From positions 231,655-295,654 of the forward strand of contig DASZRK010000002.1 of assembly GCA_035549195.1 (NCBI GenBank): DNA of 64,000 nucleotides. Reading direction: 5' to 3'. The position numbers and the translations under genes were made by a program. Positions 1 through 25,541 of this stretch are shown piece after piece (positions within the stretch are counted from its first letter, which is position 1; each line of letters starts with the position of its first letter). This DNA is from a bacterium. GTDB taxonomy: Bacteria > Oederibacteriota > Muellerivitia > Muellerivitales > Muellerivitaceae. The notes below the pieces were generated by a model. That model searched no databases. It was given only the letters and a program-made list of their open reading frames with translations, and was not told the DNA's origin.

Positions 1-1290
1 CCGTCGGGCTCGCGGTCCTCGTCGGCGTTGCCGAAGGCGTTGCGGTAGGGGTCGCCGTCGGTGTCATCGAGACCGTCGCGGTCGAGGTGAAAGTGGCCGT
101 ATTGGCCCCTGTGGCTGTTGGTGTGGCCGAAGCCGTGTTGGTCCGTGTCGGGGTGAAGGTGGACGTAGAGGACGCCGTAGCCATCGGGGTCCGCGAAGGT
201 GTCGAGGTCACGGTCGAGGTCGGGGTGCCACTAGGCGTGGAAGTCCGGGTGAAGGTGGAAGTCCCGGTGTTCGTAGGGGTCGAGGTGCCCGTAGCGCTCG
301 CCGTCCGGGTAGGGGTGGCGCTGGGGGTACCGGTGGCGGTCGAAGTGGGGCTATGGGTACGGGTCGCGGTGGAGGTGGGCGTGAAGGACGGCGTCATGCT
401 GGCGGTCGGGGTATGGGTCTTGGTCGGAGTGAAGGTGGCCGTCGTCGTCGGGGTGTTGGTCTTCGTCGGGCTGTTGGTCGGGGTATTCGTGGGCGCCGCC
501 ACGCAACCTGGGAACTGTTGGCCCGTGCTGGCGTAGGCGCCGCCGGCGATGACCGAGGAATAACAGGGGTTCAGGGCCCCGGCGCAGCTGCCCGTCCCGG
601 TGGTGAGGGTCACGCTGGCGTTGAGCTTGTTGCCCCGGGCATCGGTGATGGTCACCGGCATCACCGCGTTCGCCGAATAACCGAAGTAGCCCGAGGATGA
701 TTGCCAGCGGTTGTCGGCCGAATGGGTCAGGCTCTCCCCCTTTCCCGTGACCACGGAGATGATGGGAAAAAGATAGTCCTCGAAGAAGATCCCCGAGGTC
801 TCCCCATCCTTGTAGAAATAGGTGACCTTCCCCCCCGAGGATGCGTTGGCGTTGAGGATGCTCAAGGGACATTCCACGAAATGCCAAGTGATGCTGATGT
901 TCCCCAGGCTGGTGTTGGCCAGCGCGGAGAAAGCGGTCTGGCTCAGGTCCAGGTCATCGGGCCCGGAACAGGTGGGACAGCTGTCCACCACCTGCACGAT
1001 GACGCTCGTTCCGCCCGCCGCGTAATTGGCCTGGATGCAGGCCCCGCAGGATCCCGAACTGGACCAGAGGTTGTTGGCCCCGGCCGAGGACGCCGCGCAA
1101 TAGTATTGGCCGATGGCCTGGCTGGCGTAGCTACAGGCAAAGGTGCAACAAAGGGTGTAGTAGGTCGCGTGACCACTGAAGGAGGTCGGGGGATCGGCGG
1201 GGCAATACTTGAGGGTGCTGAAATTCATCTGGGCTTGGGCGCTCCCAAGAACCAAAAGGAAGCCGCAGGACAATAGAAGGACCTTCCCTG
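1..1290 (-). CDS. Secreted expansin-like protein (DPBB D1 + CBM63-like D2) followed by Thr/Pro linker; 3' end (C-terminal modules) lies beyond window start
   Basis: Minus-strand translation from ~1290 gives a signal peptide (..KVLLLSCGFLLVLGSAQA) then QMNFSTLKYCPADPPTSFSGHATYYT...CGAC...VVDSCPTCSG..DLDLSQTAFSAL..ITWHFVEC. This is a DPBB/expansin EXLX-like signature. A D2-like beta-sandwich follows, then a TNTPTNSPTKTNTP linker running to position 1. No in-frame ATG precedes the signal peptide (candidate TTG start). There is no stop in the window, so the ORF track does not list it. Confidence 0.6.
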
Positions 1291-1500
1291 TATTAGGGAG
1301 GTCTTTGATCGAATAATGGGATCTTCCAAAAATCGTTTTCACCCGGACCCGCCGAAAGGGATTTCGTCAGGGAAAAGGTACCTGGGTCCCAGGTTGCCAT
1401 ATGTTGATGGGTTGTTTATTTAATAAGAAGATTTTGCAGATTCAGAACGCCTCAAAGATCCGCTGGAGCGACAAAAAGACCGGCCAGGGGCCTGATCTAA

Positions 1501-4500
1501 TCAACGCAAAATGAGGATTTTTCCTACTGTTTTTCCAGTAGGGGTCTTGACCACCACGTAATAGAGCCCGCTGGCCAGGGGGCTCCCCCACTGGTCCATG
1601 GGATCAAGCTTCACTAAGGACCCCGGGGTCATATTGTGGATGTTCTTCTCGGCCACTAAGCGGAAGGCGGTGGTAAAGACCCGCACTTGGACATCGGTAG
1701 GAGCGTTCAGGGGAACGGCGACCTGGATGGGTTGGGTCCCGTCCGAAGGGTTGGGATAAACGACCGGCTTGGACCAGGTCGGAGTGGCGGTAGGGATGCC
1801 ACCGACCGTCACTTCCGCCCCGTCGTAGGGGATCCCCGTGGCCGTTCCGCTCCCCGAGCCCGTGGTGACGACGACCCCGGTCAGGGATGTCTGATAGGTC
1901 CCCGAAGGAGCGCTGGATGAGATATCCAGGACGATCAAGAGGTCTTGGGTCGCCGATCCGGGTAGGACGTCGCTGAGACCGACCGTAAGGGTCCCATCAT
2001 TGGCCGGGTAGGTCCCACTGGCTAAAAGGCTGTCGCCTCCATCCACGATCCCGTTCCCGTTGCTATCCAGGTAGACCTTGACCGAGGTGATTCCGGTCTG
2101 GTCGTTGCCCGTTCCGGAAGCCGTCAAGGAGATCTGTCCCACCGTCGTAGGACCGCCGGTCAGGTTCTGGAGCTGGACCTGCATCACCGGGACCTGCGGG
2201 GCGCCAGGAGCCTGGTTCGAATCCGGAGGCGCCGCCGGTCCAGCGGAAACCTGGAGGACCGGACCGGTCGTCGGGGTATTTGTCGGGGTTTGGGTCTTGG
2301 TCGGGCTGGAGGTCGGCGAAGGCGAATTCGTGGCCGTGGCCGTCAGCGTCGGTGTCAAGGTCCGGGTCGCGGTGGGACTGTGGGTGGGCGTGGCGGTGGG
2401 GGCCGGAGGGGTCAAGGTCCCCGTAGGGCTATCGGTCGGCGTCCCCGTCGGGGAGGCCGTGGGGGTCAAGGTCGCCGAAAAAGTCGCCGTCGAGGTCAGG
2501 CTGGCCGTCGGACTTGCGCTGGGCGTCGCGGATGGGGTGGCTGTCGGCGAGAAGGTCGGGGTCGAGGTGGGGGTACGGGTCGGACTGGAGGTGGCCGAAG
2601 GGGTCGGTGTGGGCGTCGGGCTCGAGGCGCAGGTCACCGGCGCCACATCGGGCGGGAGCGAACCCAACCGGCTTTGCAACTGGGCGTCGAAAAGCGACGG
2701 CGGGTCCAGGTTGGCCCGGTCGATCCCCTCATAGGCCACGTTCCCCCGCGGGCCCACTTGAGGCGCGTTCCCGCTCATGACCGTTCCATAAACGTAGGTC
2801 GCGGTCAGGTCCTGGGAATTGTCATAAATGGTGGCTCCCCCGGTGGGGCCGATGATGAGGGCATCCGAATCCGAGGTGTAGGTGGCCGGGGAACATTGCA
2901 CCGACCCCGCCTGCCAGTTGCCATAGGGATTGGCCGAGGTTCCCGAGTAGTTCCACACCACCCCGCCCGCGAAGGTCTCATAGGCATTGTTGCTTTGGGT
3001 CTCCCGGTTCTCGGCCAGGAGCCCGTTATTGGTCTGGGTCATCATGTCCCACAGGAGCCTTTGCGAATAGGCGAAATGGGTATCGTCGCATTCCATGGTC
3101 ACGCTGGCCGAATTCCCCATGGTCTTGATGGAGTTGCAGCGTGTGTAGACCACCATGTTGGTCATGGCGTATTCGGTGGTGAAGTTATGGCGCAGGTTCG
3201 TGGCCGTACAGCGTTTGAAGAGCACCGCCGAAGAGGCGTAGGTGTAGAACCCGTAGCCCCAACCCCCGCCGCCATAGTCCTGGGCCCCGGTGATGGAACA
3301 ATCCAGGACGGTGATTCGGGTGGACCAGGCGGGTTTGATGCCGTTCTTGGCGACATTGAGGACCTTCACGTCCCGGGCCCAACCGTTGAAGACGCCCTTG
3401 AAGGCCAAGGCGGTCCCCGCCGGGCGGCCCGAATCGTTGCTGTTGGCCAGGACCTGGATCGTCATCCCTTCGATGCCGTCGTTCTCGATGTATTGGCCCC
3501 CGTTGGGCTTGTAGAACCAGACCGTGGCGTCGCTGTTGTGCAGGCTGAAGGGGATGGGCGCGTCCAGGGTGATGACGTTGCCCGCGATGGCCGTGATCTT
3601 GCGCGGATAGCAGAGGGTGTTGCTGAAGGCCCCATCGGTGCCGGTACCCGGCGGGTCCGTGGTCCAGTTGCCGGCGCTGTTGATCGTGGAAAAATTGGGC
3701 CAGAAATACTGCTGGACCACCACCCAGTTCCCCACCGCGAAGGAAGCGGCGGAACCCACCGTGACGGACAGGTCCCCCCGGTTCACGTCGGCGCAGCTGG
3801 TCGTGACCGGCGCCTTGCCCGGCTCCGCCCATTGGCTGTAGGAGATCCCGCCGCCGCCCATGAAGGTGAAGGGCGCCTCGGTGAGCTTGTCCCCCGGGTT
3901 ATAGGAGGAGGCGATCACCACCGTGGTGGCCCCGCTTCCCGCTCCCAGGATGCGGATATTCCCGCCGGTGATGGTGACGGTCCCCGAAAGGGTCACGGAG
4001 CCGGAAGGGAGCCAAAGGGTGCCGCCGCCCATCCCCACCAGTGTGGAAAGCCCGGTCCTGACCGCGGTCGTAATGTCCCCCGAGGACGAGACGGTCACGT
4101 TGTTGCAGGGGATGGCGTCCCCCAACCCGACTTGGGAGAGCTTGTAACCACTGTAGGAATAATCATCCAGCTTGAAGGGCCGTCCACCCAAGGTCACGCT
4201 CTGGGCCACCCAGTTGGGCCCGCTGGGTTGCAGGAAGACCGAGTTCCAGGCCCCCAAGGGCGTGGGCGTGATCGTGGGCGAGTTGGTCGGACTGGGGGAA
4301 GGGGTGGCGGTGAAGGACGCGGTCGGTGTCGTCGAAGCCGTCGGACTGGAGGTAGGGCTCGAAGTGGGGCTGTTGGTCGGGCTCAGGGTGGGGGTCCAGG
4401 TGGGCGTCGCCGTGGGGCTGTTGGAGGGGGTCGGCGTGGCCGTGGAGCACCCCATGAAAAGGCGGAGGTTGTCCAGGTAGAAGGTGCCCGTGACCGTGCC

Positions 4501-6996
4501 AGGCCCGGAGTTATAAACGAACTCGAGGGCCGTGATGGAAGAGCCCTGGGTGATGCCGCCCGCCGCCCAATTGATGTTGAAGGTCACATCGTTGTTCTGC
4601 CCCGCTACCAGGGTCGGGGTGTCGCCCGAGATGGGCTGGTAGAAAGTGGTCGGCGAATCGGCGCGCAGGAACAATTGGGTCCACCCTTGGCCCGCGGTCA
4701 AGGAGGAGGATACGTTGATGTCCAACTTCAGTTGGGTGACGCTGGTCCAGTCATTGGGGGTGAATCCGGTCAGGTTGAAGAGCTGATCGTTCCAACTGGC
4801 GCCGGTGGTCACGTTCACCTGCAGGCTGTGGGTCCCTTGGGTGGCATTCAATGTGGTCACAGCCCGGGAAGCGTTGGTCCCCGACCAGGTCCCGTTCTCC
4901 GCCAGGGTCTCGGCCCCGTTCAAGAGGACCACGCAAACGGTGGCCGTGGGGCTGGGAGTGGCTGTGGGGGTCAGGGTGGCCGTGGAACTGGGGGTCGGCG
5001 TAGCGGTGGCGAGGGTGCCCGTGGGAGTGGCCGTCGGCGTGGCGGTGGGGGATGTATTCACCGCGAAGGCCGAGAGCAGGAACTGGTATTTGCCCTGGTA
5101 TCCCTGGTCGGGCTCGGTGACCTCCCAGGAATCCTCGGGCCATGTGTTCCCCCAATCCTTATAGGACTTCATGGGCGGTTGGCCCTGCGGCGGGTTGAGG
5201 GTCGGTCCCGAATAGGAGGCGTCGGGCGCGAAGTTCTGGTTGGGTCCTCCCGCCAGGATCCCCGGCGCCGGCCCCACCGCCCCGCCACCCGTGTTCCCGT
5301 CGAAGGTCGTCCCTTGGTAGAACCAACTGTGGTAGATGGACATGATCGATTTGGAGGCCCCCAGGTTGGCACCCTGGGTCCCCATGTTGGTCAGATAGAC
5401 CCAGTTCAAGGGGTTTCGGCCATGGAAATAATGGAGGTACTCCTCCGCTTGGTTCGCGTAAGCCGTGTTCTGGGCCGGGTTGGCATTGGTCTTCACGGCG
5501 AAAAGGAGTTGGTTGCCCCAGGAAGCCTTCAACTGGTTGGAGCCCCAGGTGTAATGCCCCGGGTACATGTAGCCCAAGTAGGGATCGTTCACCTGCTGGT
5601 TCATGATGTAGTTCTGGCATTCGTTCTTCAGGGAGTTCTTGATGGCCGTCACCACCGCGGCCGTCGCCCCCGGGGCCAGGCAATAGGACACCATCCCCAA
5701 TTCCAGCGGCTCGCAAAGGGACGCGTCGAAATGGTCGGCCCCTGCGTTGGGCGGATTGGAGACCGGCCGGAAAGAGCTTTCAATGACCGCTGAGGAGTTG
5801 TAATTGGCGTCGAAATAGGTCTGGTAGGTGGCGCTCCCGGTCAGGGCGAAAAGTTCGGCGGCGGCGGCCACCCGGGCCTGGGCGTCCCAGGCCGAGGATT
5901 GGTTGGCGTTGGCGCTGGAAACCCCGGTGGAATCGAAGGTGACCGGCGAGGGATTGGCGGAAAGATAGCCCCAAGCCGAGACCGCGGCGTTCTGCAGTGT
6001 CACCGCGTAGGAGCTATAGAGCGGATAGGCCTGGAAGAGCCGCGCCCCCAGGGCAAAGGCCATGGCCCCGGTGGCGGTGGCGGTGGTGGAGACGTTCAGG
6101 TAGTAGCGCTTGGCGGTGTCGTTGGCCGGGTTCCCCGGGTTGTTGGAGGTGCTCGCGTTGCTGTAACCCACCATCGAATAAAGGGCCCCGTCGCTGGAGC
6201 GCTGCATGCGCAGCATCCAGTCCAGTTCATATTTGACCTCGTCCAGCATGTCGGGCACCCCGTTGCCCGATTCGGGGATGTTGGTGTTGTCCCCATAGCC
6301 GTTGGGGTACCACTCCGCCGAATGCATCAGGTACCAAAGGGTCGCGTGGGCGAAGGTCACATATTTCCCATAATCCCCCGCGTCATGCCAGCCGCCATGC
6401 ACATCCCGGGCCGTGCCCGCCCCTTGGTCGGCGTTCGCATTCCAGAGGTGGGCGACCAGGTCCTGATTGGCTCCCTCATGGCAGGCGGTATGGTTCCAGT
6501 TCGCCCCTCCATTGGCCGAGGAGATATTCATCCCGCAACGCTGATAGAAGAACATCCGCTGGGAAGCCGTGACCACCCCGTTATAGACGCTGTCCAAAAC
6601 TTGGAAATTGTAGGATTGCCCGCCGGGATTGGAGCCGCCGGGCACCTGCACGTAATAGGTCCCGGGCGCGCTCAAGGTGGTGAATGTTCCCTGCCACACC
6701 TTATCGCCGGAAAAGGTGCTGTCCGTGGCGCCCGCGCCCCAGGTCACCGCGCTCCCGGTGAAGACCGTGGCCCCATTGGAGACATTGATGACGTTGAAGG
6801 TGGCGCCCGCGCCCAGGTTGAAGCTCGAAGGGCTCCCGACTCCGGTGTTGGGCTGGGCGAAGATGACGATCTTTGGATCGGCGGGCTTGTAGCCGAACTG
6901 GTCCACGATGATGTTCGACAGGACCGCTCCATGGACCGGCCCTAGGGCCGAAGCGAACAGGAGAAAGATCCCAAAACGTTTCAAGTCAGGACGCAA
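1501..6996 (-). CDS. Giant secreted multi-domain glycoside hydrolase: N-terminal Ig-like (CelD_N) + GH9 catalytic domain, CBM4/9/22-like beta-sandwich, right-handed beta-helix (pectate-lyase-like) domain, beta-sandwich domain, T9SS-type CTD
   Basis: 1831 aa with a signal peptide. GH9 motifs: IIVDQFGYKPADPK (Ig-like N-domain), GGWHDAGDYGKYV, PDMLDEVKYELDWMLRMQ, YFHGRNPLNWVYL, and C-terminal ..TEPDQGYQGKYQFLL carrying the catalytic Glu. Three TPT/SPT linkers. A beta-helix-like segment (NGWARDVKVLNVAKNG..). C-terminus [11 protein letters not shown]...[10 protein letters not shown]...GKILILR. Confidence 0.85.
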   Translation of the reverse strand: MRPDLKRFGIFLLFASALGPVHGAVLSNIIVDQFGYKPADPKIVIFAQPNTGVGSPSSFNLGAGATFNVINVSNGATVFTGSAVTWGAGATDSTFSGDKVWQGTFTTLSAPGTYYVQVPGGSNPGGQSYNFQVLDSVYNGVVTASQRMFFYQRCGMNISSANGGANWNHTACHEGANQDLVAHLWNANADQGAGTARDVHGGWHDAGDYGKYVTFAHATLWYLMHSAEWYPNGYGDNTNIPESGNGVPDMLDEVKYELDWMLRMQRSSDGALYSMVGYSNASTSNNPGNPANDTAKRYYLNVSTTATATGAMAFALGARLFQAYPLYSSYAVTLQNAAVSAWGYLSANPSPVTFDSTGVSSANANQSSAWDAQARVAAAAELFALTGSATYQTYFDANYNSSAVIESSFRPVSNPPNAGADHFDASLCEPLELGMVSYCLAPGATAAVVTAIKNSLKNECQNYIMNQQVNDPYLGYMYPGHYTWGSNQLKASWGNQLLFAVKTNANPAQNTAYANQAEEYLHYFHGRNPLNWVYLTNMGTQGANLGASKSIMSIYHSWFYQGTTFDGNTGGGAVGPAPGILAGGPNQNFAPDASYSGPTLNPPQGQPPMKSYKDWGNTWPEDSWEVTEPDQGYQGKYQFLLSAFAVNTSPTATPTATPTGTLATATPTPSSTATLTPTATPSPTATVCVVLLNGAETLAENGTWSGTNASRAVTTLNATQGTHSLQVNVTTGASWNDQLFNLTGFTPNDWTSVTQLKLDINVSSSLTAGQGWTQLFLRADSPTTFYQPISGDTPTLVAGQNNDVTFNINWAAGGITQGSSITALEFVYNSGPGTVTGTFYLDNLRLFMGCSTATPTPSNSPTATPTWTPTLSPTNSPTSSPTSSPTASTTPTASFTATPSPSPTNSPTITPTPLGAWNSVFLQPSGPNWVAQSVTLGGRPFKLDDYSYSGYKLSQVGLGDAIPCNNVTVSSSGDITTAVRTGLSTLVGMGGGTLWLPSGSVTLSGTVTITGGNIRILGAGSGATTVVIASSYNPGDKLTEAPFTFMGGGGISYSQWAEPGKAPVTTSCADVNRGDLSVTVGSAASFAVGNWVVVQQYFWPNFSTINSAGNWTTDPPGTGTDGAFSNTLCYPRKITAIAGNVITLDAPIPFSLHNSDATVWFYKPNGGQYIENDGIEGMTIQVLANSNDSGRPAGTALAFKGVFNGWARDVKVLNVAKNGIKPAWSTRITVLDCSITGAQDYGGGGWGYGFYTYASSAVLFKRCTATNLRHNFTTEYAMTNMVVYTRCNSIKTMGNSASVTMECDDTHFAYSQRLLWDMMTQTNNGLLAENRETQSNNAYETFAGGVVWNYSGTSANPYGNWQAGSVQCSPATYTSDSDALIIGPTGGATIYDNSQDLTATYVYGTVMSGNAPQVGPRGNVAYEGIDRANLDPPSLFDAQLQSRLGSLPPDVAPVTCASSPTPTPTPSATSSPTRTPTSTPTFSPTATPSATPSASPTASLTSTATFSATLTPTASPTGTPTDSPTGTLTPPAPTATPTHSPTATRTLTPTLTATATNSPSPTSSPTKTQTPTNTPTTGPVLQVSAGPAAPPDSNQAPGAPQVPVMQVQLQNLTGGPTTVGQISLTASGTGNDQTGITSVKVYLDSNGNGIVDGGDSLLASGTYPANDGTLTVGLSDVLPGSATQDLLIVLDISSSAPSGTYQTSLTGVVVTTGSGSGTATGIPYDGAEVTVGGIPTATPTWSKPVVYPNPSDGTQPIQVAVPLNAPTDVQVRVFTTAFRLVAEKNIHNMTPGSLVKLDPMDQWGSPLASGLYYVVVKTPTGKTVGKILILR

Positions 6997-7049
6997 TGAT
7001 CCCTACCTTTGGACAGTTCTCGGCTTTTTCGTCTTAACGTGCAATCAAC

Positions 7050-7092
7050 CCGGCAAAAAAAAGCCGACCCGTGAAGGCCGGCTTTTATTTTA
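7050..7092 (-). terminator. Putative intrinsic terminator downstream of the GH8 gene (A-run, GC hairpin, T-run)
   Basis: Minus-strand RNA reads aaaauaaaaGCCGgccuucacggguCGGCuuuuuuuu directly after the GH8 stop at 7090. A 4-5 bp GC stem is followed by U8. The A-tract on the other side suggests bidirectional potential. Confidence 0.4.
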
Positions 7093-10000: not shown

Positions 10001-10929
10001 ATGGAAGCGCCGGCGCTTTTGTTCCAAAGCCAGTCGATACCGATACGCAAAGGATAGCGGGAGGCGTCATAGCCCATCTCCAGGGCCGGACGGCCGGAGT
10101 TGGTGGTCGCGTTCAGGCTGGAATCGACCTGATTGGGCATGAAGCCCAGTTGAGAATATTTATTGTAGACCGTGGGCAGGAATGTCCCGTAGATCCAGTT
10201 GTTGGGAATGTTCCAGTTATGGCCCTGGGCGTCGTAGGCGTTCCAGCAGCTGAACCAAGCCGGTTCCATGTAGCTGGAGTAAAGGGGATATTGGTAGGCG
10301 TCCCCCGAGTAGATGGTTCCGGTACCCACCTCGTAACTCCAAATGGCGTTGATCATGTTCTGCCATTGGGCCTTGTAATTAATCGCCCCGCCCGATCCCC
10401 ATATCTTGTCGGCCATGAGCAGGGCCATGGCCATGTCCTCGTCCGCGTCGGTAGCGCCGTTGGCACCCTTGATGCCGCCGTTGTTGTCCAGATTCCAATC
10501 CATCACATAATGATTGCTGGAGTCGGGCATCCATTGCACGGCGTATTTCCACAATCCATCGAACAGGGTCTTGTCGTTCATCATGACGGCGATGAGCATC
10601 CCATAGCCGATACCCTCGGAGACCGTATCGTTTCCCACGTCGGGCCGCTGGACGCGAAGGGCTCCCGCCAAGGTCCCGCCCCCGCGCTTGGTCCCGCTGC
10701 TGGTCACGTAGTGCGTGTACCAGCCGATGTAATTGGTCGAGACCGCCGCATTCATCGTGGCGTTCGGGCCGCCATTGGGGAGATAGACCCCACCATAGGA
10801 ATTGTTGTGGGGAAAGGTGACCGACCCGCCGCCGGAATTGACCGCCTGGGCGTTCAAGACCGAGACCGAAAGGACGAATAAGAGGATCGAAGCGGTTAAA
10901 TTTTTGAAGTGGCTGAAAAACGATTTCAT
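7090..10929 (-). CDS. Secreted GH8 glycoside hydrolase (endoglucanase/xylanase/chitosanase family) + CBM-like domain + ~380-aa Thr/Ser/Pro/Asn low-complexity linker + beta-sandwich domain + T9SS-type CTD
   Basis: Signal peptide [29 protein letters not shown]. Exact GH8 PROSITE-type signature [20 protein letters not shown], plus [11 protein letters not shown]. The C-terminal module ([21 protein letters not shown]..) is followed by [21 protein letters not shown]...[33 protein letters not shown] sits 5 nt upstream of the ATG. Confidence 0.85.
7800..8940 (-). repeat. Low-complexity Thr/Ser/Pro/Ala/Asn-rich linker-coding tract (ACN/CCN codon repeats) inside the GH8 gene
   Basis: Protein segment [27 protein letters not shown]... 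is about 380 aa long. The antisense strand gives the spurious VGV/VAV-rich ORFs 7826..8599 and 8699..9061. Similar tracts occur at ~1..540, 2080..2730, 4170..4480, 4800..5160, 11800..13150, 15200..16050, 19130..20110 and 22190..22310. Confidence 0.7.
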
Positions 10930-11015
10930 TGGGCCTCGTTGTTGTTCAAAAAACGGGGTCGAGCATCGGACCGAGGATGTAAAAGGTATCTCAATATTCC
11001 CGTCTTGTAAATTAC

Positions 11016-11094
11016 GGCGGCCAGAAAGGCCGTCTTTTTGGTTTACCGATAAATCGAAGACCCTTTGCTCTGTTTAACCCGGATCCGGTTAAAC
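11016..11094 (-). promoter_or_regulatory. Two stem-loops in the GH5-GH8 intergenic spacer: the near-perfect palindrome GTTTAAC-c-CGGATCCG-GTTAAAC (11072..11094) and a GC hairpin + T-run (11016..11041)
   Basis: The palindrome starts 5 nt after the GH5 stop codon (11099) and lacks a U-tract on the coding strand. The second hairpin, GGCGGCCagaaaGGCCGTC followed by TTTTTGG, is oriented for the plus strand. They may act as terminator or RNA-stability hairpins, or as an operator for a dimeric regulator. Confidence 0.35.
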
Positions 11095-11098
11095 GGCC

Positions 11099-14000
11099 TC
11101 AGCGCAGGATCAATAGTTTCCCCACTGACCGGCCGCTCTTGGTCTGGACCGCAACATAGTAGAGGCCGCTGGCCAAGGGCGTCCCCCAGGCATCCCTTAA
11201 TTCCAGGGTCACGGGTCCATAGGTCAGGTTCGAATAAGCATCTTCCCTCACCTTCCGGAAAGCCGTCGTGAAGATCTGCACCCTCACATCCGAGGTCCCG
11301 GTGTAGGGCGGAGGCAGGACCTGCACCGGCCCGCCGTTGGAAGGGTTCGGGTAGAGGACCGGTTTGTTCTCCTGGAATGGCGTCGGGGTCGAGGTGGCCG
11401 TTGGGGTGAAGGAGGAAGTGGGCGTGAAGGAAGCGGTCGGTGTCGCCGTTGCGACCACCACAGTGATGGTCGCTCCGGACAAGGGCAACGGGCTGAAATT
11501 GACCGCTTGGCCGTTGGTGCCGGACGCGCCCGTCAGGTTGAAGGAATAACCTCCGACGGCGGCCGTCCCGGAAAAGTTCACCTGGAAGGTATAGGTCACC
11601 GAGCCGCCGCCCGAGGGAACGATATCGCTCAGGCCGCTGAAGGAGGCCACGGAGCCGCTGAACCCCACCGGTGAACCTTCCGGCACACCGTTCTTCAAAA
11701 GGGTCACCGACAGGATGTTCGCCGCGGGGTTCCCCGTTTCGCTCAAGATCAGGCTTGTCAGGGTCACGTTGGTCCCGCTGGGATTGGTCAGCACCGATCC
11801 TTCCACGGGCACATTGGAAGCCCCTTGCAATTGGTTCCCGCTGGGAGCGCCTCCTCCCAAGGAGACCTGGACGGTCACAGCCGTCGGGGTAAAGGTCGGA
11901 GTGATCGTCGGCGTGAAACTACGGGTCGGGGTCCAGCTGTGGGTGGCGGTGAAGGAATTCGTCGGGCTGGGAGTGGCCGTTCGCGTAGCTGTGGCGGTGG
12001 CCGTATTGGTCGCGGTGTTGACCAGGGTGTTCGTGGGGGTATCGGTGGCGGTGTGTGTCCGGGTCGGAGTGGCGGTTGCCGTATAAGTGGCGGTGGGGGT
12101 CGTTGTGGCTGTCCGCGTGGCGGTCCGGGTCGGAGTGCCGGAAGGAGTGGGAGTCCCGGTCCAGGTGGGAGTATGGGTCGGGATCAAGGTACCCGTCGGG
12201 CTGTCCGTTGGGGTCGGGGTGATCGTAGGCGTTCCCGTGGCGGTCGAAGTGGCCGTGGAAGTTGTGGTCGAAGTGAGCGTGGATGTGCGCGTGGGGGTCG
12301 CTGTCGGACTGTTCGTGAGGGTCGAGGTGAAAGTGGCGGTGTTGGCCAGGGTCGCGGTGGGAGTGCGGCTGGGCGTGGAGGTCGGGGTGGCCGTCGGTGT
12401 ATTGACCGCCGTGTTGGTCGAAGTGGCCGTAGCCGTCCGGGTCGCGCTTTGGGTGGCCGTGGAGGTGGCGGAAGCAGTGGACGTGGAGGTCGTGGTCCGG
12501 GTCGGGGTGCCTGTGGGTGTAGGGGTCCCGGTACGCGTGGGCGTATCCGTCGGGATCAAGGTTCCCGTGGGACTGTCCGTAGGGGTCGGGGTGATCGTGG
12601 GGGTCCCCGTAGGGCTCGGGGTCCAGGTCGCCGTCCGGGTCGCCGTGTTCGTGGCCGTCGGGGTGGCCGTGGAAGTGACCGTGCGGGTCGCAGTGGAACT
12701 AGGCGTATTCGTCACGGTGGAAGTAGGGGTATTGGTCCTTGTCAGGGTGGCGGTAGGGGTAAGGGTCGGGGTGGAGGAAGCGGTGGCTGTTGCGGTCAAG
12801 GAAGGCGTGAAGCTGTTGGTGAAGGTCCGGGTCGGCGTGTTGGAAACCGTGGAGGTGGGGCTGTTGGTGCGGGTGGCGGTGTTCGTGGGCGTATCGCTGG
12901 GAGTGGCGGTGGGGCTGTTGGTCCGGGTGGGCGTGTTGGTGGGAGTCCCGGTCGAGGTATTGGAAGCCGTGGAGGTGGGGCTGTTCGTGCGGGTGGCGGT
13001 GTTCGTGGGCGTATCGCTGGGAGTGGCGGTAGGGCTGTTGGTCCGGGTGGACGTGTTGGTGGGAGTACCGGTCGAGGTATTGGTCCGGGTCGGGCTCGAG
13101 GTCGCCGTCGAGGTCGGAGTGAAGGTCGGCGTGTAGGTCCTGGTCGCGGTCGAGGTGGGCGTATTCGTGGGCGCGCAGACCACAGTGATGGCGATGGTAT
13201 TGCTGGTCACCGGCCCTCCGCCCGACCATTGGGCTATCCCACGATCGCTGACGACCTGGCAGGCATCACCGGCGGTATAGCTGTAGGACCCCACGATGAA
13301 GGTGATCGGCACACAGCTCCCGCCTGGCAGATTGCTCACCACCCAGCTCAAATTGGGGTAGGTCGTTCCTGTCGGGTTGATGGAAACCGGTGTACCCGAT
13401 ACGGTCACGGTCCAAGGACTATAGCCGGGTCCTTGGAAGGCCCACGACAGGGGATTGGTGATGTTGTCGGTCACGGTGACCGAATTGGCCGTGACCGAAC
13501 CGGATGAATTGCAGACATTCAAGACCATGGTGATGGGGGCGGCGTCCGAATAGCCCGAGGTCGGGCCGCCGGTGGTCTTCGTGAGGGTGATGTTGGGAGG
13601 GACCGTGGTGGGGGTGGCGGTGGCCGTACGGGTGGGCGTGCTGGTGGGCACCGGCGAACTGCCCGAGCAGGTCGGGGCGACGGTGGCCAATTGGTTCACG
13701 ACCGGCTGCCCATGCCAGGAGTTCAACGAGGAAGGCAGGGCCGAGAGCATGGCCGGGCAGGCGCCGTTGTGCCAGGACCAGGCGGTCCAGGAATAGACGT
13801 AACTGCGGTTGTTGCTCCCGTTGGCGAAGGTGAAGAGGGCGTTGTCGAAAGTGCCGCTGTCGTTGTTGCAGTTGGGCCCCGAGGGGTCGGGCCCGAACTC
13901 CCCGATGAAGACCGGATGGTTTGCCGCCGCGATGGTGGTCTCGGTATCCCAATTGGAGGAGTTGTCCGTCCCGTTGCCCTTGTGCCCGTAGATGTGCACA

Positions 14001-14761
14001 TCGTAGGCGAACCCATTGCCCGCGTTGGTGAAGGGATAGGAATCGATGGACCGCAGGTCATAGGCCCAGTCCAACCCGCCGATGAAGATGATGTTGTTGG
14101 CCCCGGTCCCACGGATGGCGTTGATGAGGGCCTGGTGGCCCGGGGTCGTGAAGCCCTGGGTGGTGTTCCCGCCGCTCTGCCAAACGGACCAGGAGACGCT
14201 CTTGGGTTCGTTATAAAGGCCGAAGAAGACCGCGGGGTTGTTCTTATAACGGTTGGCCACGTTGGTCCAGAAGGTCACCGCGTTGGCGTCGGGCATATCC
14301 TGCTGGCCGGTGGCCGTGCCCCAGCCGCTCCCGCAAGGGGCGGAGGCGGTGCTGGAGGTCCCCGACCAATGCAGGTCGATGATGACATAGGCGTTGGCGC
14401 CCGAGCAGTAATTGACGATGTTGTCCACGATGGTCTGGTAGGAGGAGGCGCTGCCCCCTTGGCAGCCGAACCATCGGTCCTGGTTCACGGGCAGACGGAT
14501 GATGTTGGCCTTGTAGGTCCCGACCGCGGCCTGGACCGAGGAAAGGGGCGGCCCCTCACCGGTGTTGCTCCATTCCAAACTGGGAACGTTAACGCCGCGT
14601 AAACGGACCGAACAGCCGCTGGAGGTCTGGAAGTGGTTGCCCGAAACAAAAAGGTCCGGCGGCGCGGCCAAGGCGCTTGAGGACAAAAGGAAGGCAAAAA
14701 GAAGGACGCCTTGCCTGAACCGGTTCAATGGTCTCTTTTGGAATTTCATTTCCGTACGCAC
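11099..14761 (-). CDS. Secreted GH5 glycoside hydrolase (cellulase family A) + DUF11-like conserved-repeat domain + long Thr/Pro linker + beta-sandwich domain + T9SS-type CTD
   Basis: GH5 motifs: IIRLPV, VFFGLYNEPKS (acid/base NEP) and VFIGEFGPD (nucleophile GEFG). Mid-domain ITLTKTTGGPTSGYSDAAPITMVLNVCNSSGSVTANSVTVTDNITN is DUF11-like. The C-terminal cassette is ~85% identical to that of the GH8 at 7090 and ends KPVLYPNPSNGG...[25 protein letters not shown]. Confidence 0.8.
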   Translation of the reverse strand: MRTEMKFQKRPLNRFRQGVLLFAFLLSSSALAAPPDLFVSGNHFQTSSGCSVRLRGVNVPSLEWSNTGEGPPLSSVQAAVGTYKANIIRLPVNQDRWFGCQGGSASSYQTIVDNIVNYCSGANAYVIIDLHWSGTSSTASAPCGSGWGTATGQQDMPDANAVTFWTNVANRYKNNPAVFFGLYNEPKSVSWSVWQSGGNTTQGFTTPGHQALINAIRGTGANNIIFIGGLDWAYDLRSIDSYPFTNAGNGFAYDVHIYGHKGNGTDNSSNWDTETTIAAANHPVFIGEFGPDPSGPNCNNDSGTFDNALFTFANGSNNRSYVYSWTAWSWHNGACPAMLSALPSSLNSWHGQPVVNQLATVAPTCSGSSPVPTSTPTRTATATPTTVPPNITLTKTTGGPTSGYSDAAPITMVLNVCNSSGSVTANSVTVTDNITNPLSWAFQGPGYSPWTVTVSGTPVSINPTGTTYPNLSWVVSNLPGGSCVPITFIVGSYSYTAGDACQVVSDRGIAQWSGGGPVTSNTIAITVVCAPTNTPTSTATRTYTPTFTPTSTATSSPTRTNTSTGTPTNTSTRTNSPTATPSDTPTNTATRTNSPTSTASNTSTGTPTNTPTRTNSPTATPSDTPTNTATRTNSPTSTVSNTPTRTFTNSFTPSLTATATASSTPTLTPTATLTRTNTPTSTVTNTPSSTATRTVTSTATPTATNTATRTATWTPSPTGTPTITPTPTDSPTGTLIPTDTPTRTGTPTPTGTPTRTTTSTSTASATSTATQSATRTATATSTNTAVNTPTATPTSTPSRTPTATLANTATFTSTLTNSPTATPTRTSTLTSTTTSTATSTATGTPTITPTPTDSPTGTLIPTHTPTWTGTPTPSGTPTRTATRTATTTPTATYTATATPTRTHTATDTPTNTLVNTATNTATATATRTATPSPTNSFTATHSWTPTRSFTPTITPTFTPTAVTVQVSLGGGAPSGNQLQGASNVPVEGSVLTNPSGTNVTLTSLILSETGNPAANILSVTLLKNGVPEGSPVGFSGSVASFSGLSDIVPSGGGSVTYTFQVNFSGTAAVGGYSFNLTGASGTNGQAVNFSPLPLSGATITVVVATATPTASFTPTSSFTPTATSTPTPFQENKPVLYPNPSNGGPVQVLPPPYTGTSDVRVQIFTTAFRKVREDAYSNLTYGPVTLELRDAWGTPLASGLYYVAVQTKSGRSVGKLLILR

Positions 14762-14942
14762 GAATGCCTTGATCAGGATTTAAAACGACCAAAAAACGTT
14801 TTCAGCAGGAAGCAAAAAAGGGCGGCCTTGCCCATAAAAGTTACCACATTTTCCCCCGTTACAAAGGAACAAATGAAATAGGCAATTCTTTGATTTTATC
14901 GAAAAAGTTTAATGCTCAACCAACCTCGCCCTCGATCGTCCT

Positions 14943-17819
14943 TCAGCGAAGCACTAATAACTTCAACGTCCAATGACGTCCCCCACCGGAAAGGACCAGG
15001 TAGTAAAGGCCGTTCGCGAAAACTTTTCCTTGTGGGTCGGTCAGGAGCAAGGGAATGGATTGCCCCGCCACGCTCAAGGTCAGGTGGATGTCCTCCACCT
15101 TCCGGAAAGCCAATGTAAAAACTTCGATCCGCAGGTCTTTCCCCGCCGAGCCAGGCGAAAGGAGGGTCACTTGCTCCCCTGTTTGCACCGGGTTCGGATA
15201 GAGCAGGGGTTTGTCCGTCGCCAAGGGGGTCAGGGTCGGACTCAGGGGCGGCGTTGTGGAAGAAGGGGTGGCGGAGGATGTCGTGGTCGGGGTGGCCGTG
15301 GGGGTCAACGTCGAGGCCGGGATGGAAGTGGCGCTGGCGGTCCAAGTCGGGGTCGCCGTCCCCGTAAAGGTCGGCGTCAAGGTACGCGTTACGGTGAAGG
15401 TGGCCGTGGTGGTTGCGGTCACCGTGAAGGTACGCGTAGCGGTCGGGGTAGTGGTGGCCGTCCCTGTGGAAGTTCCTGTTGAAGTAGGGGTGGCGGTCGG
15501 CGGCAAGGTCCCCGTGGGCGAAAGGGTCCGAGTGGCGGTAACGGTCGGGGTCGCCGATGCGGTCGCACTGGGTGTGGTCGTCGAGGTGGAGGTAGCCGTT
15601 CGGGTCGGACTGAAGGTTCCGGTCGCCGTCCAGGTGGCGGTACCGGTCGGAGTGGCGGAAGGAGGGGCCGTGGGGGTGAAGCTGGTCGTGGAAGTGGCCG
15701 AAGGGGTCGTGGTGGGGCTCGGGGTGAAGGTCCCTGTCGAGGTCATCGAGGCGCTTGGGGTGGGCGAATAGGTTCCCGTGGGGGTCCAACTGACCGTGGC
15801 CGTCGCGGAAGCCGTGGCTGTCCGGCTGGCGGTGAGGGTCGCCGTGGACGACGGGGTCGAGCTGGGGGTAACGGTGGCCGTCCGGCTAGCCGTCAGGGTC
15901 GGCGTCGCCGACATCGAACTGGTCGGTGTGGAACTGGCCGTGCGGGTAGGGGTCGGCGAGATCGTGGGGGTGGGCGTATAGCTCCCCACCGTCGGGGTCG
16001 GCGTGGCGGTCGGGGGCTTGGGGGTATTGGTGGGGGTCGCCGTCCAAGGGGTGGTCGGGGTGGGGGTGGGCAGGTTCGCGATACGAATGACCTGGATGGC
16101 GTTCACTTGCGAGGTATCGGCGGTCGAACTGAACGACAGGTCCAACTGGCCGCTCGAGACCAGTACCGTCACGGTCCGGTCATAGGCCGTGTGTTCCCCT
16201 CCGGCCGCGCTATAGACGTCCAAACCGCTGATCTCCGGTTGGCCTTGGGCCGTCAGGCTAAAGACCCGCCCCCCCGGGTGGGCATTGGGGTCGTAGTTCT
16301 CGCAGAACTTCAAGGTCACCTGGTAATAGCCCGTGGGCACGGTGAAATGATAGATGGGATTGCCCCAGCGCTCGGTCTGGTAGAGGGTCTGCTGGTTGTT
16401 GACCGTATTGGAGATGGTCTGGCCGCTGTAGGTCGAGGTGCTCCCCGAGGTGGTGGTGTCATAACCCCAACTCCCCGCCGAGAAAACCTTGTCGGCGGCC
16501 CAGGTGGCCCCCGCGCTGTCCACGAACTGGGGCCCCCCTGCGTTCACCCGGATCGTGAGCGGGGCATAAGCGGAAAGGGTCGGGGTGGGGGTCGGCGTCC
16601 CATAGAGGTTGTAGTCGAGGAAATTCCCGGAAAGCATCAGCAGCGACATCACCGTCCAGGATTCGTCGTAATAGGTGCCCCCCACCAGCAATTTCGATCC
16701 CACCAGGTCGTTGTAGGTATCGTCCATATAGGCCTGGTAGTTGCGGCTCACCATCCCCCCCACCCCGGCGGGTCCCACAAAGGCCGCCGATTGGAACCCA
16801 GGGTTCTGGGAAACGGTCAAGGTGGGCAATTGGGCGTCCGGGGTTCCGTTCAAGTGGTAGCCATCCACGATGGAGACGGCCCCGATGGCGGAGAAGAAAT
16901 TGCTGGTCTTGGTGGCATAGGTCTCCGCCGCCGAATTCCCGAACCAGAGGTAATCCTGCACCATGCGGAAGGGCGTGCGGCAGGCGTCGTATTGGTAGTC
17001 GGTGTAGGCTGACCCCACCGAGTTCTGGGAAACCCCCGCGCTGTTGCACCAGGCCGAGACCAGGCCGTTGGTGGCATTGCCATAGCCCTGGGCGAGGTTG
17101 TTGTTGAGGATGGTGTAACAACTGGCGGCGATATTGAGCCAACCCGGTTGACCTGTGGCGGTGGCGAATTCCCGGAAATAGGCGGGCGCGAAATAGGAGG
17201 GATTGATGGCCCCGAACCCGTCCCCCGCGGTGACGATCTGCCCCGCGCTGTTCATATAGGAATAGAGCTTTCCGATCTGGGTGACCGCCAGGCTCTGATA
17301 GCTGGCCCCCAAGGACCCGCTCCCGCCCCATTGGCGGGCGGCCATGAGCAGGGCCCAGGCCATGTCCTCGTCCCCGTCAGTGGCGGCGCCGCTTCCGGCG
17401 GTCCCGCCCGAGGCATCGATGTACCAGTTCATCAGGCCGCTGCCGTCCAGGTGCAATTGCTCGTACTTCCAGAGCTTATCGAAGAGGTTCTGGTCGTTCA
17501 TATAAACGGCGATGAGCATGCCGTAACCGATGCCTTCCGACACGGTGGAATTGAGGGCCAGCCCCGAGTCGTTGGGCCGCTGCACCCGTAGGAACCCGCC
17601 CGCGCCCGTCGAGGTCACGCAGTCGGCGTACCACTTGTTGTAGGCGGCGAGGATGTCGGCGTTGTTATAGATGGAGGAATGGAACCCATAAGGATTGTCC
17701 CGGTTCTGGGGGAAGGGGAAGTTGCCCGTGGTGCCGTTCACACTTTGCGCGTTCATTGAACCGGTCCAACAAATGGACACAAGGAAGGCACAGAGGAATT
17801 GGGGGAGCCGGACCTTCAA
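14943..17819 (-). CDS. Secreted GH8 glycoside hydrolase + malectin/CBM57-like domain + Thr/Pro/Ser linker + T9SS-type CTD
   Basis: Signal peptide MKVRLPQFLCAFLVSICWTGSMNAQS. Exact GH8 signature ATDGDEDMAWALLMAARQWG, plus [11 protein letters not shown]. Malectin-like segment IRVNAGGPQFVDSAGATWAADKVF...LYQTERWG...RVFSL...LDLSF. CTD KPLLYPNPVQTGEQV...NGLYYLVLSGGGRHWTLKLLVLR. Confidence 0.85.
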   Translation of the reverse strand: MKVRLPQFLCAFLVSICWTGSMNAQSVNGTTGNFPFPQNRDNPYGFHSSIYNNADILAAYNKWYADCVTSTGAGGFLRVQRPNDSGLALNSTVSEGIGYGMLIAVYMNDQNLFDKLWKYEQLHLDGSGLMNWYIDASGGTAGSGAATDGDEDMAWALLMAARQWGGSGSLGASYQSLAVTQIGKLYSYMNSAGQIVTAGDGFGAINPSYFAPAYFREFATATGQPGWLNIAASCYTILNNNLAQGYGNATNGLVSAWCNSAGVSQNSVGSAYTDYQYDACRTPFRMVQDYLWFGNSAAETYATKTSNFFSAIGAVSIVDGYHLNGTPDAQLPTLTVSQNPGFQSAAFVGPAGVGGMVSRNYQAYMDDTYNDLVGSKLLVGGTYYDESWTVMSLLMLSGNFLDYNLYGTPTPTPTLSAYAPLTIRVNAGGPQFVDSAGATWAADKVFSAGSWGYDTTTSGSTSTYSGQTISNTVNNQQTLYQTERWGNPIYHFTVPTGYYQVTLKFCENYDPNAHPGGRVFSLTAQGQPEISGLDVYSAAGGEHTAYDRTVTVLVSSGQLDLSFSSTADTSQVNAIQVIRIANLPTPTPTTPWTATPTNTPKPPTATPTPTVGSYTPTPTISPTPTRTASSTPTSSMSATPTLTASRTATVTPSSTPSSTATLTASRTATASATATVSWTPTGTYSPTPSASMTSTGTFTPSPTTTPSATSTTSFTPTAPPSATPTGTATWTATGTFSPTRTATSTSTTTPSATASATPTVTATRTLSPTGTLPPTATPTSTGTSTGTATTTPTATRTFTVTATTTATFTVTRTLTPTFTGTATPTWTASATSIPASTLTPTATPTTTSSATPSSTTPPLSPTLTPLATDKPLLYPNPVQTGEQVTLLSPGSAGKDLRIEVFTLAFRKVEDIHLTLSVAGQSIPLLLTDPQGKVFANGLYYLVLSGGGRHWTLKLLVLR

Positions 17820-21845: not shown

Positions 21846-21884
21846 GGACCTTTCCTGAACGGGGATTTCAGCCCCCGCCGGTCC

Positions 21885-24011: not shown

Positions 24012-24338
24012 GGGATAAAAACTATATCATCGACCGGCCAAGCCACGCTATAGACCCATTAGGACCTGTCGCTTATTGGCTATACATTGCCACATAATTT
24101 GAAAAAAACCGAAACATAAATCGCATTAGGACCATTCATCGCTACGCCTATCGGAATTGCCGACCGGACCACATCCCCCAAAAAGTTTCCCAAACTATCC
24201 AACTCTTCGAGAGTGATCCTGTGCCGAAGTTGGTCGCATTGTCCGTCTCCGTTTCCGGCCCTTCATTGATTAATACGATTCGACCCGTGACCAAAAATCT
24301 CCACTCGGGCATTCCCATGAAATCACTTCCAATAAGCA

Positions 24339-25541
24339 TTACGGGGAATAAACTTCAATGGAATTGTTCGCAGTATCCGTAAGATAAATCCTCCCCATTC
24401 CATCGATAGCAACTTGGTTCGGGAGTGCCAGACTCCCCGAAGGATCACCCGACGCAGTTGTGTCACCCAAAAAGATCCAAGAATCATTGAATTCCCTAAG
24501 GCAAGCCCGCGTATATGTGTAGTTACCGCCCGCTATGTAAATGTTCCCAGATGGATCAATCGCCATACCGCGATAAGCCGGATCCAAACTCATCGGCACA
24601 GCCAATTCCGGAGCATATAAAAATGTTAGTGGATTGCCATTTGCATCGAATTTAGAAATTTGAGAAGGAGGGTTTGCCGATACATACACATCGTTATTTC
24701 CATCAACAGCGATTGATCCGATATTCCCCGGAAAGATCTGTGTTATATAGGTGCCGGAATGAGTGAATTTTTGGACACGACTGTTTCCGGGATCCGTGAC
24801 ATAGATCGAAGCACCTGCGGACCCATTGTTATCCAAGACAATCCCGTACGGATGTGAAAACTCGCCGGGACCCCCACCCGTAACCGGAGAACTGGATCCA
24901 ATTTGATAAATGAAATTCATGTTTTGGTCGAAAACCATGACCCTGTTTTCATTGTTGTCCACGATGAAGATATTTCCTAACTGATCAATCGCGATGCCGG
25001 CAATCCGTCCAATTTGTCCCATCTGGCTGCTCGATGCCGCATAAGAAGTAACCGGTATCCCCGCAGATGTGTAAATACCCAATGTGGTCCCAAATAGAGA
25101 TCCGATCGTAGTCCCAAGGGATTGGCCCACAAAGACATTGTTGTTTGTGGGATCGATAGCGATCGCTTCAGGAAGTGGAACCGTCCAATGGGTGATATGC
25201 GTGAGAACTGGTGTTGACGTATAGGTCGGGGTTCCGGTCCAGGTCGCAGTGGAGGTCATGGTCGGTGTGAATGAAGATGTCAAAGAACTTGTTGGCGTGA
25301 AACTATCCGTCTCCGTGAATGTAGGGGAGATGGTAAAAGTAGCTGTGGCGGTCGGGGTGTTCGTCGGGGTTTCCGATGGGGTTTGGGTGGGTGAGTCGGT
25401 CGGACTGGAAGTTGGTATGGGCGTATTCGTCCGGGTGACCGTCGGGGCGGGAGGAGATGCAGGCGGTTTGTTTTCCACGCATGACCAGGAAAGGAATAGG
25501 CCCAAGAACCCAAGAAAGAACAAATTTAAGGACTTTTTCAT
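24339..25541 (-). CDS. Secreted/lipoprotein-like NHL-repeat beta-propeller protein with N-terminal Thr/Pro linker; AT-rich, compositionally anomalous gene
   Basis: [21 protein letters not shown] signal (non-canonical lipobox), then [39 protein letters not shown]... linker. NHL repeats follow ([29 protein letters not shown]; [22 protein letters not shown]). There is no CTD. GC content is visibly lower than in the flanking genes. Confidence 0.65.

Follow-up and report, generated by a model that had tools for sequence, protein, structure and literature searches.

In Cytophaga hutchinsonii, the most closely comparable system described, 12 of the 18 predicted cellulases of glycoside hydrolase (GH) families GH5, GH8 and GH9 carry C-terminal domains (CTDs), mutants of its type IX secretion system (T9SS) are unable to use cellulose, CTD-bearing cellulases are anchored to lipopolysaccharide at the cell surface, and glycosylation is linked to the T9SS (PMC11611037). 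For T9SS cargo with type-A CTDs, both release and anchoring have been described (PMC11611037). A second point of comparison is the candidate phylum Goldbacteria/FCPU426, which has many GH5, GH8, GH9 and GH44 enzymes (Hernsdorf 2017; Doud 2020; Lopez-Mondejar 2022); in the parts covered of these papers, FCPU426 is among the phyla richest in carbohydrate-binding modules (CBMs), and three Goldbacteria cellulases were validated biochemically, while a shared C-terminal sorting domain, giant Thr/Pro linkers, tandem arrays and a secretion route are not described (PMC7031533, PMC5520028, PMC9765126). The present work concerns a 64-kb stretch of bacterial metagenomic DNA (contig DASZRK010000002.1 of assembly GCA_035549195.1, positions 231,655 to 295,654), hereafter the window, whose first 17,819 nt hold a run of five genes for large, modular, exported proteins. 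These genes probably belong to a polysaccharide-degradation array of an FCPU426-related bacterium, whose CTD-tagged enzymes would be exported through a T9SS-type translocon and then either released or tethered to the cell surface.

The array at the left end of the window consists of the following features:

1 to 1342, minus strand: expansin-like gene (DPBB/EXLX1-like domains D1 and D2, then a Thr/Pro linker), cut by the window edge, with a DPBB_1 match.
1501 to 6996, minus strand: GH9 enzyme, 1831 aa, with Pfam GH9 and CelD_N matches and catalytic motifs.
7061 to 7084, minus strand: intrinsic terminator (hairpin and T-run) directly 3' of the GH8a stop codon.
7090 to 10929, minus strand: first GH8 enzyme (GH8a), 1279 aa, with a Glyco_hydro_8 match and motifs.
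11099 to 14761, minus strand: GH5 enzyme of 1220 aa (1216 in the public call), with a Cellulase PF00150 match and motifs.
14943 to 17819, minus strand: GH8-malectin enzyme, 958 aa from a TTG start, with Glyco_hydro_8 and Malectin matches and motifs.

A preliminary description of this DNA had reported five consecutive co-directional minus-strand genes at 1-17819. The count stands, with four open reading frames (ORFs) complete and the expansin-like one cut by the left edge, its 5' two-thirds, from a start near 1342 (or 1228), lying inside the window and the rest beyond it. Sequence to the left was read from a 600-kb contig (CAZXBC010000014.1 of GCA_964638935.1, locus L001), on which window position 1 is record position 511460. 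There the gene is complete (L001:19588-21753), its full ORF encoding 721 aa as against 683 aa in the public gene call, which starts at window position 1228; the end of its linker and its CTD, with the terminus KLLILR, lie on this contig. On the same strand follow a gene for a 602-aa AraC-family regulator (L001:21786-23594) and a GH30+malectin gene. Because these continue past the left edge, the array is larger than the reported coordinates, and three further CTD proteins lie on its other side, at 18858-29115. The G+C content of the window is about 62% throughout; origin as a horizontally transferred island was ruled out, as G+C content and third-codon-position G+C (GC3) of the array equal those of the rest of the contig. 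The metagenome-assembled genome (MAG) is apparently from soil or peat-type samples.

Pfam matches were counted against curated cutoffs, and weaker ones are called sub-threshold. On profile search, the GH families that had been assigned held for GH9, GH5 and both GH8 domains, all of which score above cutoff with intact catalytic motifs. The GH9 protein matches Glyco_hydro_9 (182.6 bits) and CelD_N (50.3 bits), both above cutoff, and has the motif HDAGDYGKY (DAGD) at aa 203-211; a match to NF058554 (E=1.1e-8) was also found. GH8a matches Glyco_hydro_8 at 89.7 bits and has SEGIGYG and DADEDMA; the GH5 protein matches Cellulase PF00150 at 128.4 bits, with NEP at 184 and GEFG at 287. In the GH8-malectin protein, Glyco_hydro_8 (168.4 bits) and Malectin (92.5 bits) are both above cutoff, in agreement with its earlier labelling, and SEGIGYG and DGDEDMA are present. 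The N-termini of all five are signal-peptide-like, as had been claimed, given upstream TTG/GTG starts for the expansin-like and GH8-malectin genes; the public call for the latter is 937 aa, without the signal peptide. The modules of the four complete proteins, all encoded on the minus strand, are laid out as follows:

6637-6918, minus strand: GH9 protein, CelD_N Ig-like domain after the signal peptide (Pfam).
5080-6585, minus strand: GH9 protein, GH9 catalytic domain (Pfam, DAGD).
4417-4926, minus strand: GH9 protein, galactose-binding-like module (Mann_GBD_bact E=0.004, sub-threshold).
2677-4206, minus strand: GH9 protein, right-handed beta-helix depolymerase-like module of 510 aa (Beta_helix E=7e-4, sub-threshold; structure match of an AlphaFold2 (AF2) model).
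2224-2676, minus strand: GH9 protein, Thr/Pro linker.
1819-2331, minus strand: GH9 protein, pre-CTD domain.
1504-1779, minus strand: GH9 protein, CTD.
Approximately 9640-10840, minus strand: GH8a, GH8 catalytic domain after the signal peptide.
8890-9609, minus strand: GH8a, 240-aa domain without family assignment.
Approximately 7852-8952, minus strand: GH8a, Thr-rich linkers.
7390-7851, minus strand: GH8a, pre-CTD domain.
7093-7365, minus strand: GH8a, CTD.
13766-14623, minus strand: GH5 protein, GH5 catalytic domain after the signal peptide (NEP, GEFG).
13187-13606, minus strand: GH5 protein, 140-aa Ig-like domain without family assignment.
11861-13198, minus strand: GH5 protein, 446-aa Thr/Pro linker whose DNA contains tandem repeats of 120 nt.
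Approximately 11477-11860, minus strand: GH5 protein, pre-CTD domain.
11102-11374, minus strand: GH5 protein, CTD.
16638-17675, minus strand: GH8-malectin protein, GH8 domain.
16110-16556, minus strand: GH8-malectin protein, Malectin domain.
15180-16091, minus strand: GH8-malectin protein, 304-aa Thr/Pro linker.
14946-15221, minus strand: GH8-malectin protein, CTD.

The accessory modules fared less well than the catalytic ones. For the GH9 protein, described earlier as GH9 with a CBM and a beta-helix, the GH9 domain stands and the beta-helix is borne out by structure, but the CBM is represented only by the sub-threshold Mann_GBD_bact match. The AF2 model of the beta-helix (mean predicted local distance difference test score, pLDDT, 67, with residues ~30-360 better) matches, with E about 1e-11, phage tailspike and capsule depolymerases and lyases (LKA1 gp49, K1 capsule lyase); the module has no PDB sequence match, and its 10 homologues among 5.8 billion proteins are all stand-alone (547-850 aa), several with PF12708. 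Because the modelled fold matches depolymerases and lyases, the GH9 protein probably carries a second, polysaccharide-cleaving module. Neither the 240-aa domain nor the pre-CTD domain of GH8a has a Pfam or PDB sequence match, and the same is true of the domain of the GH5 protein that had been called DUF11, apart from DUF7507 at E=0.1; the labels CBM for GH8a and DUF11 for the GH5 protein were accordingly rejected as unverified, while their GH8 and GH5 assignments stand. The expansin module occupies middle ground. Like bacterial expansins such as EXLX1/YoaJ of Bacillus subtilis, it exceeds the Pfam cutoff for DPBB_1 (35.8 bits, cutoff 28.8; Barwin 26.2) and matches NF041144 (expansin_EXLX1) across D1 and D2 (profile positions 1-179 of 194), although at 65 bits against a cutoff of 100, and D2 taken alone has no Pfam match. 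Unlike EXLX1, a small free two-domain protein, it is fused to a linker of ~370 aa and a T9SS-like CTD. The enzymes are in sum ordinary members of their families, but their fusions (GH9 with beta-helix, expansin with CTD) are unusual and their linkers extreme.

What unites the five proteins is the CTD. Their last ~90 residues align with 35-75% identity and end in K[IL]L[IV]LR, as had been noted; four of these termini lie in the window and that of the expansin-like protein on the parent contig. The CTD-coding DNA of the GH5 gene is 74% identical to that of GH8a. The T9SS sorting-domain model TIGR04183 spans model positions 1-71/72 at the exact C-terminus of the four complete proteins, with E values from 7e-5 to 1e-2, and is matched at E<=0.01 by 101 of 113 members of the CTD family, at best with E=1.8e-8; PF18962 was not reported by Pfam at E<0.01 for the five proteins, and many of their CTD relatives carry a precomputed PF18962 annotation. 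Other family members match the CTD portions of models for PorZ, PorU and T9SS-dependent proteases. An AF2 model built from a 113-sequence alignment (pLDDT 94) is a compact 3+4 seven-strand Ig-like beta-sandwich, and its best Foldseek matches in the PDB are, in order, PorZ (5m11), PorU (6za2), the NucA CTD in a T9SS complex (8glk_D), BT_1867 and the mirolase CTD (8qb1); T9SS CTDs take all of the top six places, and generic FN3 and Ig domains rank below them. With the type-A CTDs of RgpB, PorZ, PorU, mirolase and NucA the domain shares its size, its position at the extreme C-terminus, the seven-strand Ig-like sandwich, a YPNP start, G-x-Y in beta6 and a conserved Lys in beta7 (K88, conserved in 99% of 136 CTDs, corresponds to the conserved beta7 Lys of T9SS CTDs; PMC11285876). 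By sequence comparison and modelling, it is a homologue of the T9SS type-A sorting domain that forms a lineage-specific subfamily. The subfamily is small: an exhaustive profile search of 1.84 billion representatives yielded 653 clusters at E<=1e-10, and every match listed ended at the C-terminus of its protein.

The distribution of this CTD points away from the Bacteroidota. An alignment of the five CTD sequences was used to scan one genome per GTDB species. It matched 162 relatives, spread over 73 loci, and almost all of them belong to MAGs titled 'candidate division FCPU426' from peat, soil, Microflora Danica and Stordalen palsa. FCPU426 is a candidate phylum outside the Fibrobacterota-Chlorobiota-Bacteroidota (FCB) group in the NCBI taxonomy, so the suggestion of an unusual member of the Bacteroidota was not borne out. 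The closest relatives of the phosphoenolpyruvate carboxylase encoded in the window (57-89% identity) are in unlabelled MAGs, and Chloroflexota sequences come next. Judged by such sequence relationships, the organism is probably FCPU426 or a close relative and not a member of the Bacteroidota, a placement that is not phylogenomic. A few relatives are in MAGs titled 'proteobacterium' or 'bacterium', with the same CTD arrays; the titles 'uncultured proteobacterium' and 'Proteobacteria bacterium' (L008, L009, L011, L013, L022, L026, L035 and others; CAWIIP01, CAVYRH01, CAWJKT01, JAJPJW01) are probably misclassifications.

Among the 136 distinct CTD proteins of the window and the FCPU426 loci (median length 1056 aa), the CTD is at the extreme C-terminus in all 136, and a linker of at least 50 aa rich in Thr, Pro and Ser is present in 131 (median 372 aa). 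Their heads include GH8 (17 proteins), GH5 (15), malectin (12) and GH9 (6), and further GH74-like, GH30, GH12, CE4, Barwin, GH44, GH18, GH16, GH28, GH62, GH27, PL4, M12B protease and CBM3 modules. In the relatives, too, the CTD genes stand in co-directional tandem arrays: L010, from a different FCPU426 MAG, has the gene order GH5, GH8 with a further module, GH9 and a CTD protein, and L067 and L066 both carry adh_short, GH8-malectin and GH5. Because the same CTD arrays recur across FCPU426 loci, the array in the window is one instance of a phylum-wide genome habit. AraC/HTH_18 proteins, ~600 aa long and including a large N-terminal domain, adjoin arrays at L001, L007, L022, L025, L051, L059, L075 and L076 and are likely the regulators of these arrays.

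The long Thr/Pro/Ser linkers that had been described were also found. Counted as segments with at least 60% Thr, Pro and Ser, they total 288-544 aa per protein, with ~40% Thr and 12-16% Pro, and the longest unbroken run, in the GH5 protein, is 446 aa. The linkers are probably O-glycosylated. In their DNA, degenerate repeats are phased at 6 nt and have recently undergone tandem duplication, as in a 120-nt unit of the GH5 linker (2.2 copies, 92% matches by Tandem Repeats Finder); a degenerate 76-nt unit occurs in 81 copies. Since short-read assemblies break in this repetitive DNA, such enzymes are systematically fragmented in metagenomes; when the set of 5.8 billion proteins was searched with a CTD profile, almost all matches were fragments of 86-160 aa. 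Public protein sets likewise hold hundreds of CTD-only 'proteins' of that length on contigs of 1-3 kb.

The following course of events is proposed. In an uncultured diderm, five enzymes, each built of one or more catalytic heads, one or more long Thr/Pro spacers and the Ig-like CTD, would be exported by Sec into the periplasm, where the folded CTD would be recognized by a SprA/PorV-like outer-membrane translocon that has co-evolved with an altered loop (TxAFRK for DxxG[RK]). The CTD would then be removed, and the enzyme released or covalently tethered to the cell surface. The spacers would hold the catalytic heads off the cell and against the beta-glucans of plant cell walls, and expression would probably be controlled by the adjacent AraC-family regulator. 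Tethering appears slightly more likely than release, because the spacers sit immediately before the sorting domain and by analogy with C. hutchinsonii. Membership of GH families does not settle whether the substrate is cellulose or xyloglucan, mixed-linkage glucan or hemicellulose.

Several observations weigh against export by a T9SS-type translocon and favor instead a CTD that is a lineage-specific Ig-like module for surface or S-layer attachment or for carbohydrate binding, on proteins exported otherwise (e.g. by type II secretion), its likeness to sorting domains reflecting shared beta-sandwich ancestry. The array CTDs score 22.7, 18.2, 15.9 and, for the GH8-malectin protein, 18.5 bits on TIGR04183, under the curated cutoff of 23. 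Their beta3-beta4 loop reads IFTTAFRKV as opposed to IFDMNGRRV in RgpB, and the loop Gly is required for RgpB secretion in Porphyromonas gingivalis, where G699R blocks it (PMC11285876); at the corresponding column (40), which was set by eye and HMM (hidden Markov model) alignment column, the 136 CTDs have Phe in 86%, Tyr in 6% and Gly in 6%, followed by Arg in 98%. The last residue of these CTDs is Arg in 94%, another departure from the type-A domains. The claim of T9SS-type tails therefore holds as to homology in sequence and fold, but the tails are sub-cutoff and lack the loop Gly. Pfam and NCBIfam found no SprA, PorV, PorU or PorK/L/M/N in the window, and no T9SS core genes were found among ~85 signal-peptide-bearing neighbors in FCPU426 loci (the screen covered 61 + 26 non-cargo ORFs with signal peptides and another 10 ORFs that are large or have a class-2 CTD, all taken from the 73 loci, and the matches listed were solely to cytochromes, TPR proteins, transporters and CAZymes); as the sampled sequence, ~64 kb of this genome and ~1 Mb of relatives, is ~1% of the genomes, this negative says little. 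T9SS genes are stated to be absent outside FCB phyla (PMC11285876), Doud et al. (PMC7031533) group the FCPU426 16S cluster with Goldbacteria, beside Firestonebacteria and Elusimicrobia, and no link between Goldbacteria and the T9SS was found in the literature searched. The Foldseek matches also include domains of the FN3, CBM and Ig types (E about 1e-2). Nevertheless, this alternative is considered quite unlikely, as the six best structural matches are T9SS CTDs that rank above those generic folds, and the invariable position at the extreme C-terminus with strong conservation of K-L-L-[IV]-L-R, in 136 of 136, is typical of a sorting signal and not of a binding module. Furthermore, the domain is attached to unrelated cargo, proteases included, and above-threshold type-A CTDs co-occur in the lineage, as in the FCPU426 protein L016:903-2408, whose CTD scores 43.6 bits on TIGR04183.

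If the CTDs are sorting signals, the fate of the enzymes is a separate question, on which the preliminary description had proposed a free, synergistic cocktail for crystalline cellulose, secreted by the T9SS with the CTD cut off. In line with its report that cohesin and dockerin are lacking, a Pfam search of the five proteins and of their neighbors matched neither at E<0.01, there are no SusC/D partners, the expansin-like gene adjoins the GH9, GH8 and GH5 genes, and some type-A cargo of Bacteroidota is released. The specificity for crystalline cellulose was inferred from family names only, however: no recognized crystalline-cellulose CBM (CBM2/3) is present in the five proteins and no exo-acting GH48, GH6 or GH7 enzyme or AA10 in the window, the substrates of GH5, GH8 and GH9 enzymes also include xyloglucan, mixed-linkage glucan, chitosan and xylan, and the malectin modules and the GH30 neighbor point to hemicellulose too. 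Spacers of 300-450 aa right before the sorting domain are better suited as stalks of tethered enzymes, and the CTD cellulases of C. hutchinsonii are surface-anchored (PMC11611037). That the enzymes are free is an assumption, surface tethering being by analogy at least as likely, and the released cocktail as a whole is rather unlikely. That the array is an artefact of assembly or binning, in which repetitive linker and CTD DNA joined genes of different organisms, is extremely improbable. Linker DNA is indeed highly repetitive and visibly breaks short-read assemblies, but the exact GH8a protein was found with matching neighbors on contigs of two independent Logan assemblies, in the order GH5 end, GH8a, GH9 start, which argues that the arrangement is not an artefact, and the 600-kb contig is uniform in G+C and GC3 and the gene order of the FCPU426 locus L010 is syntenic.

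Taken as a T9SS-exported enzyme array, the locus resembles that of C. hutchinsonii in having no cohesins or dockerins, no GH6, GH7 or GH48 and many CTD proteins per genome. It differs in its FCPU426-related host, in being known from its cargo genes with the T9SS machinery as a prediction, in CTDs with TxAFRK for the DxxG[RK] loop and an LILR end, in the length of the Thr/Pro spacer on each enzyme and the co-directional arrays beside AraC regulators, and in the presence of an expansin-like protein and a GH9/beta-helix fusion. Unlike a cellulosome it has no dockerin on the enzymes and no cohesin among their neighbors, and unlike a polysaccharide utilization locus of Bacteroidota it has no SusC/SusD pair; neither family was reported for the window genes, which include just a TonB-receptor-like fragment at 62490-63983. 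Cellulase-rich Goldbacteria/FCPU426 with GH5, GH8, GH9 and GH44 enzymes (PMC7031533, PMC5520028, PMC9765126) and T9SS-tagged GH5, GH8 and GH9 enzymes in Cytophaga (PMC11611037) are already known. The literature searched does not describe an FCPU426-specific CTD subfamily with a re-coded loop that is used across a CAZyme and protease secretome, nor Thr/Pro spacers of this extreme length, the tandem arrays accompanied by AraC regulators or the GH9/beta-helix and expansin/CTD fusions.

The accepted range of the T9SS is the Bacteroidota together with a few FCB relatives. Here a T9SS signal that is recognizable but re-coded is found on the whole CAZyme secretome of another candidate phylum; the FCPU426 CTDs would either broaden that range or point to a related pathway for export or anchoring. 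A more far-reaching proposal, that FCPU426, although outside the FCB group, has a type IX-like pathway whose re-coded signal (Phe-Arg for the loop Gly, LILR end) serves to display essentially its whole plant-polysaccharide secretome on glycosylated stalks of 300-450 residues, is offered as a tentative possibility. If it is true, the T9SS extends past its accepted taxonomic range, and display on stalks would join free enzymes and cellulosomes as a third architecture by which bacteria degrade cellulose. The FTxAFRKV...KLLILR domain provides a handle for predicting the secretomes of rare-biosphere decomposers in soil and peat, for finding enzymes in fragmented metagenomes and for probing which CTD features are read by the translocon.

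To the right of the array lie the three further CTD proteins:

18858 to 21845, minus strand: sedolisin-like protein of 995 aa, in which the Thr/Pro linker spans 333 aa and the CTD is canonical-like (IYDVAGE ... GKLLVRR); Pro-kuma_activ 53.6 bits, CTD HMM E=1.3e-6.
21885 to 24011, minus strand: second sedolisin-like protein, of 708 aa, whose CTD is likewise canonical-like (LYALSGE ... GKVLVRH); Pro-kuma_activ 66 bits, TIGR04183 16.6 bits at aa 620-699.
26713 to 29115, plus strand: DUF11-repeat protein of 800 aa whose CTD is FlgD_ig-like (IYNSAGE ... RVLILR); FlgD_ig 24.4, CHU_C 17 and B_ant_repeat 36 bits.

All three keep the loop Gly (YDVAGE, YALSGE, YNSAGE), and therefore two CTD classes stand side by side in this genome.

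As regards expression signals, the five array genes are separated by gaps of about 90-230 nt, and the claim that each has its own terminator or promoter was not upheld. The sole convincing terminator between them follows GH8a (7084 to 7061; AAGCCGGCCTTCACGGGTCGGCTT + TTTTTTGCC, dG -15.5 kcal/mol, with a T-run); taken together, terminator-like sites do not rise above the chance level (19 observed, 16.5 expected), and the array scan found no excess of sigma-70-like promoters. Purine-rich GG motifs 5-10 nt upstream of most starts are compatible with Shine-Dalgarno use, and the picture of a high-GC organism that uses Shine-Dalgarno sequences agrees with these motifs and with the G+C content.

Other genes of the window and of the relatives' loci are of interest in their own right. 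Three tandem paralogs of ~440 aa on the plus strand (32503-36695) are 42-46% identical, very hydrophobic and probably polytopic, with invariant QTYLIGLK and HLLPIPEAPF motifs, a C-terminal GERRxGS and a strong negative AT skew. They lie directly upstream of a CTD-less GH44 gene (36710-38290), and a homologue stands beside GH8-malectin and GH5 in L066. No Pfam (E<=10), NCBIfam or PDB profile match was found for them, and a role as GT-C glycosyltransferases that decorate the linkers was set aside as a guess without PDB-profile or Pfam (E<=10) support. An NHL/beta-propeller repeat gene on the minus strand (24339-25565) has a G+C of 0.51 and a GC3 of 0.50, compared with about 0.8 for GC3 in its neighbors, and is probably a recent foreign acquisition. 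The minus-strand gene at 29128-32418 encodes a 1096-aa STAND NTPase (NB-ARC) with TPRs, and the equally long antisense ORF at 29197-32463 (plus strand) is its high-GC shadow (GC3 0.67 vs 0.87). In four relatives' loci (L017:11534-15433, L030:5050-9012, L033:10332-14231, L052:10294-14193), a conserved gene pair lies downstream of the cargo genes, one member encoding a protein of 361 aa and the other a multihaem cytochrome of 933-954 aa with 8 CxxCH motifs, and the Pfam families of the screened FCPU426 neighbor proteins include cytochrome b, Rieske and FixO. Finally, four tandem TPR paralogs on the minus strand of the window (53431-57241), one of them fused to an outer-membrane beta-barrel domain, adjoin the cytochrome c biogenesis genes ResB/CcsA (50146-53302).

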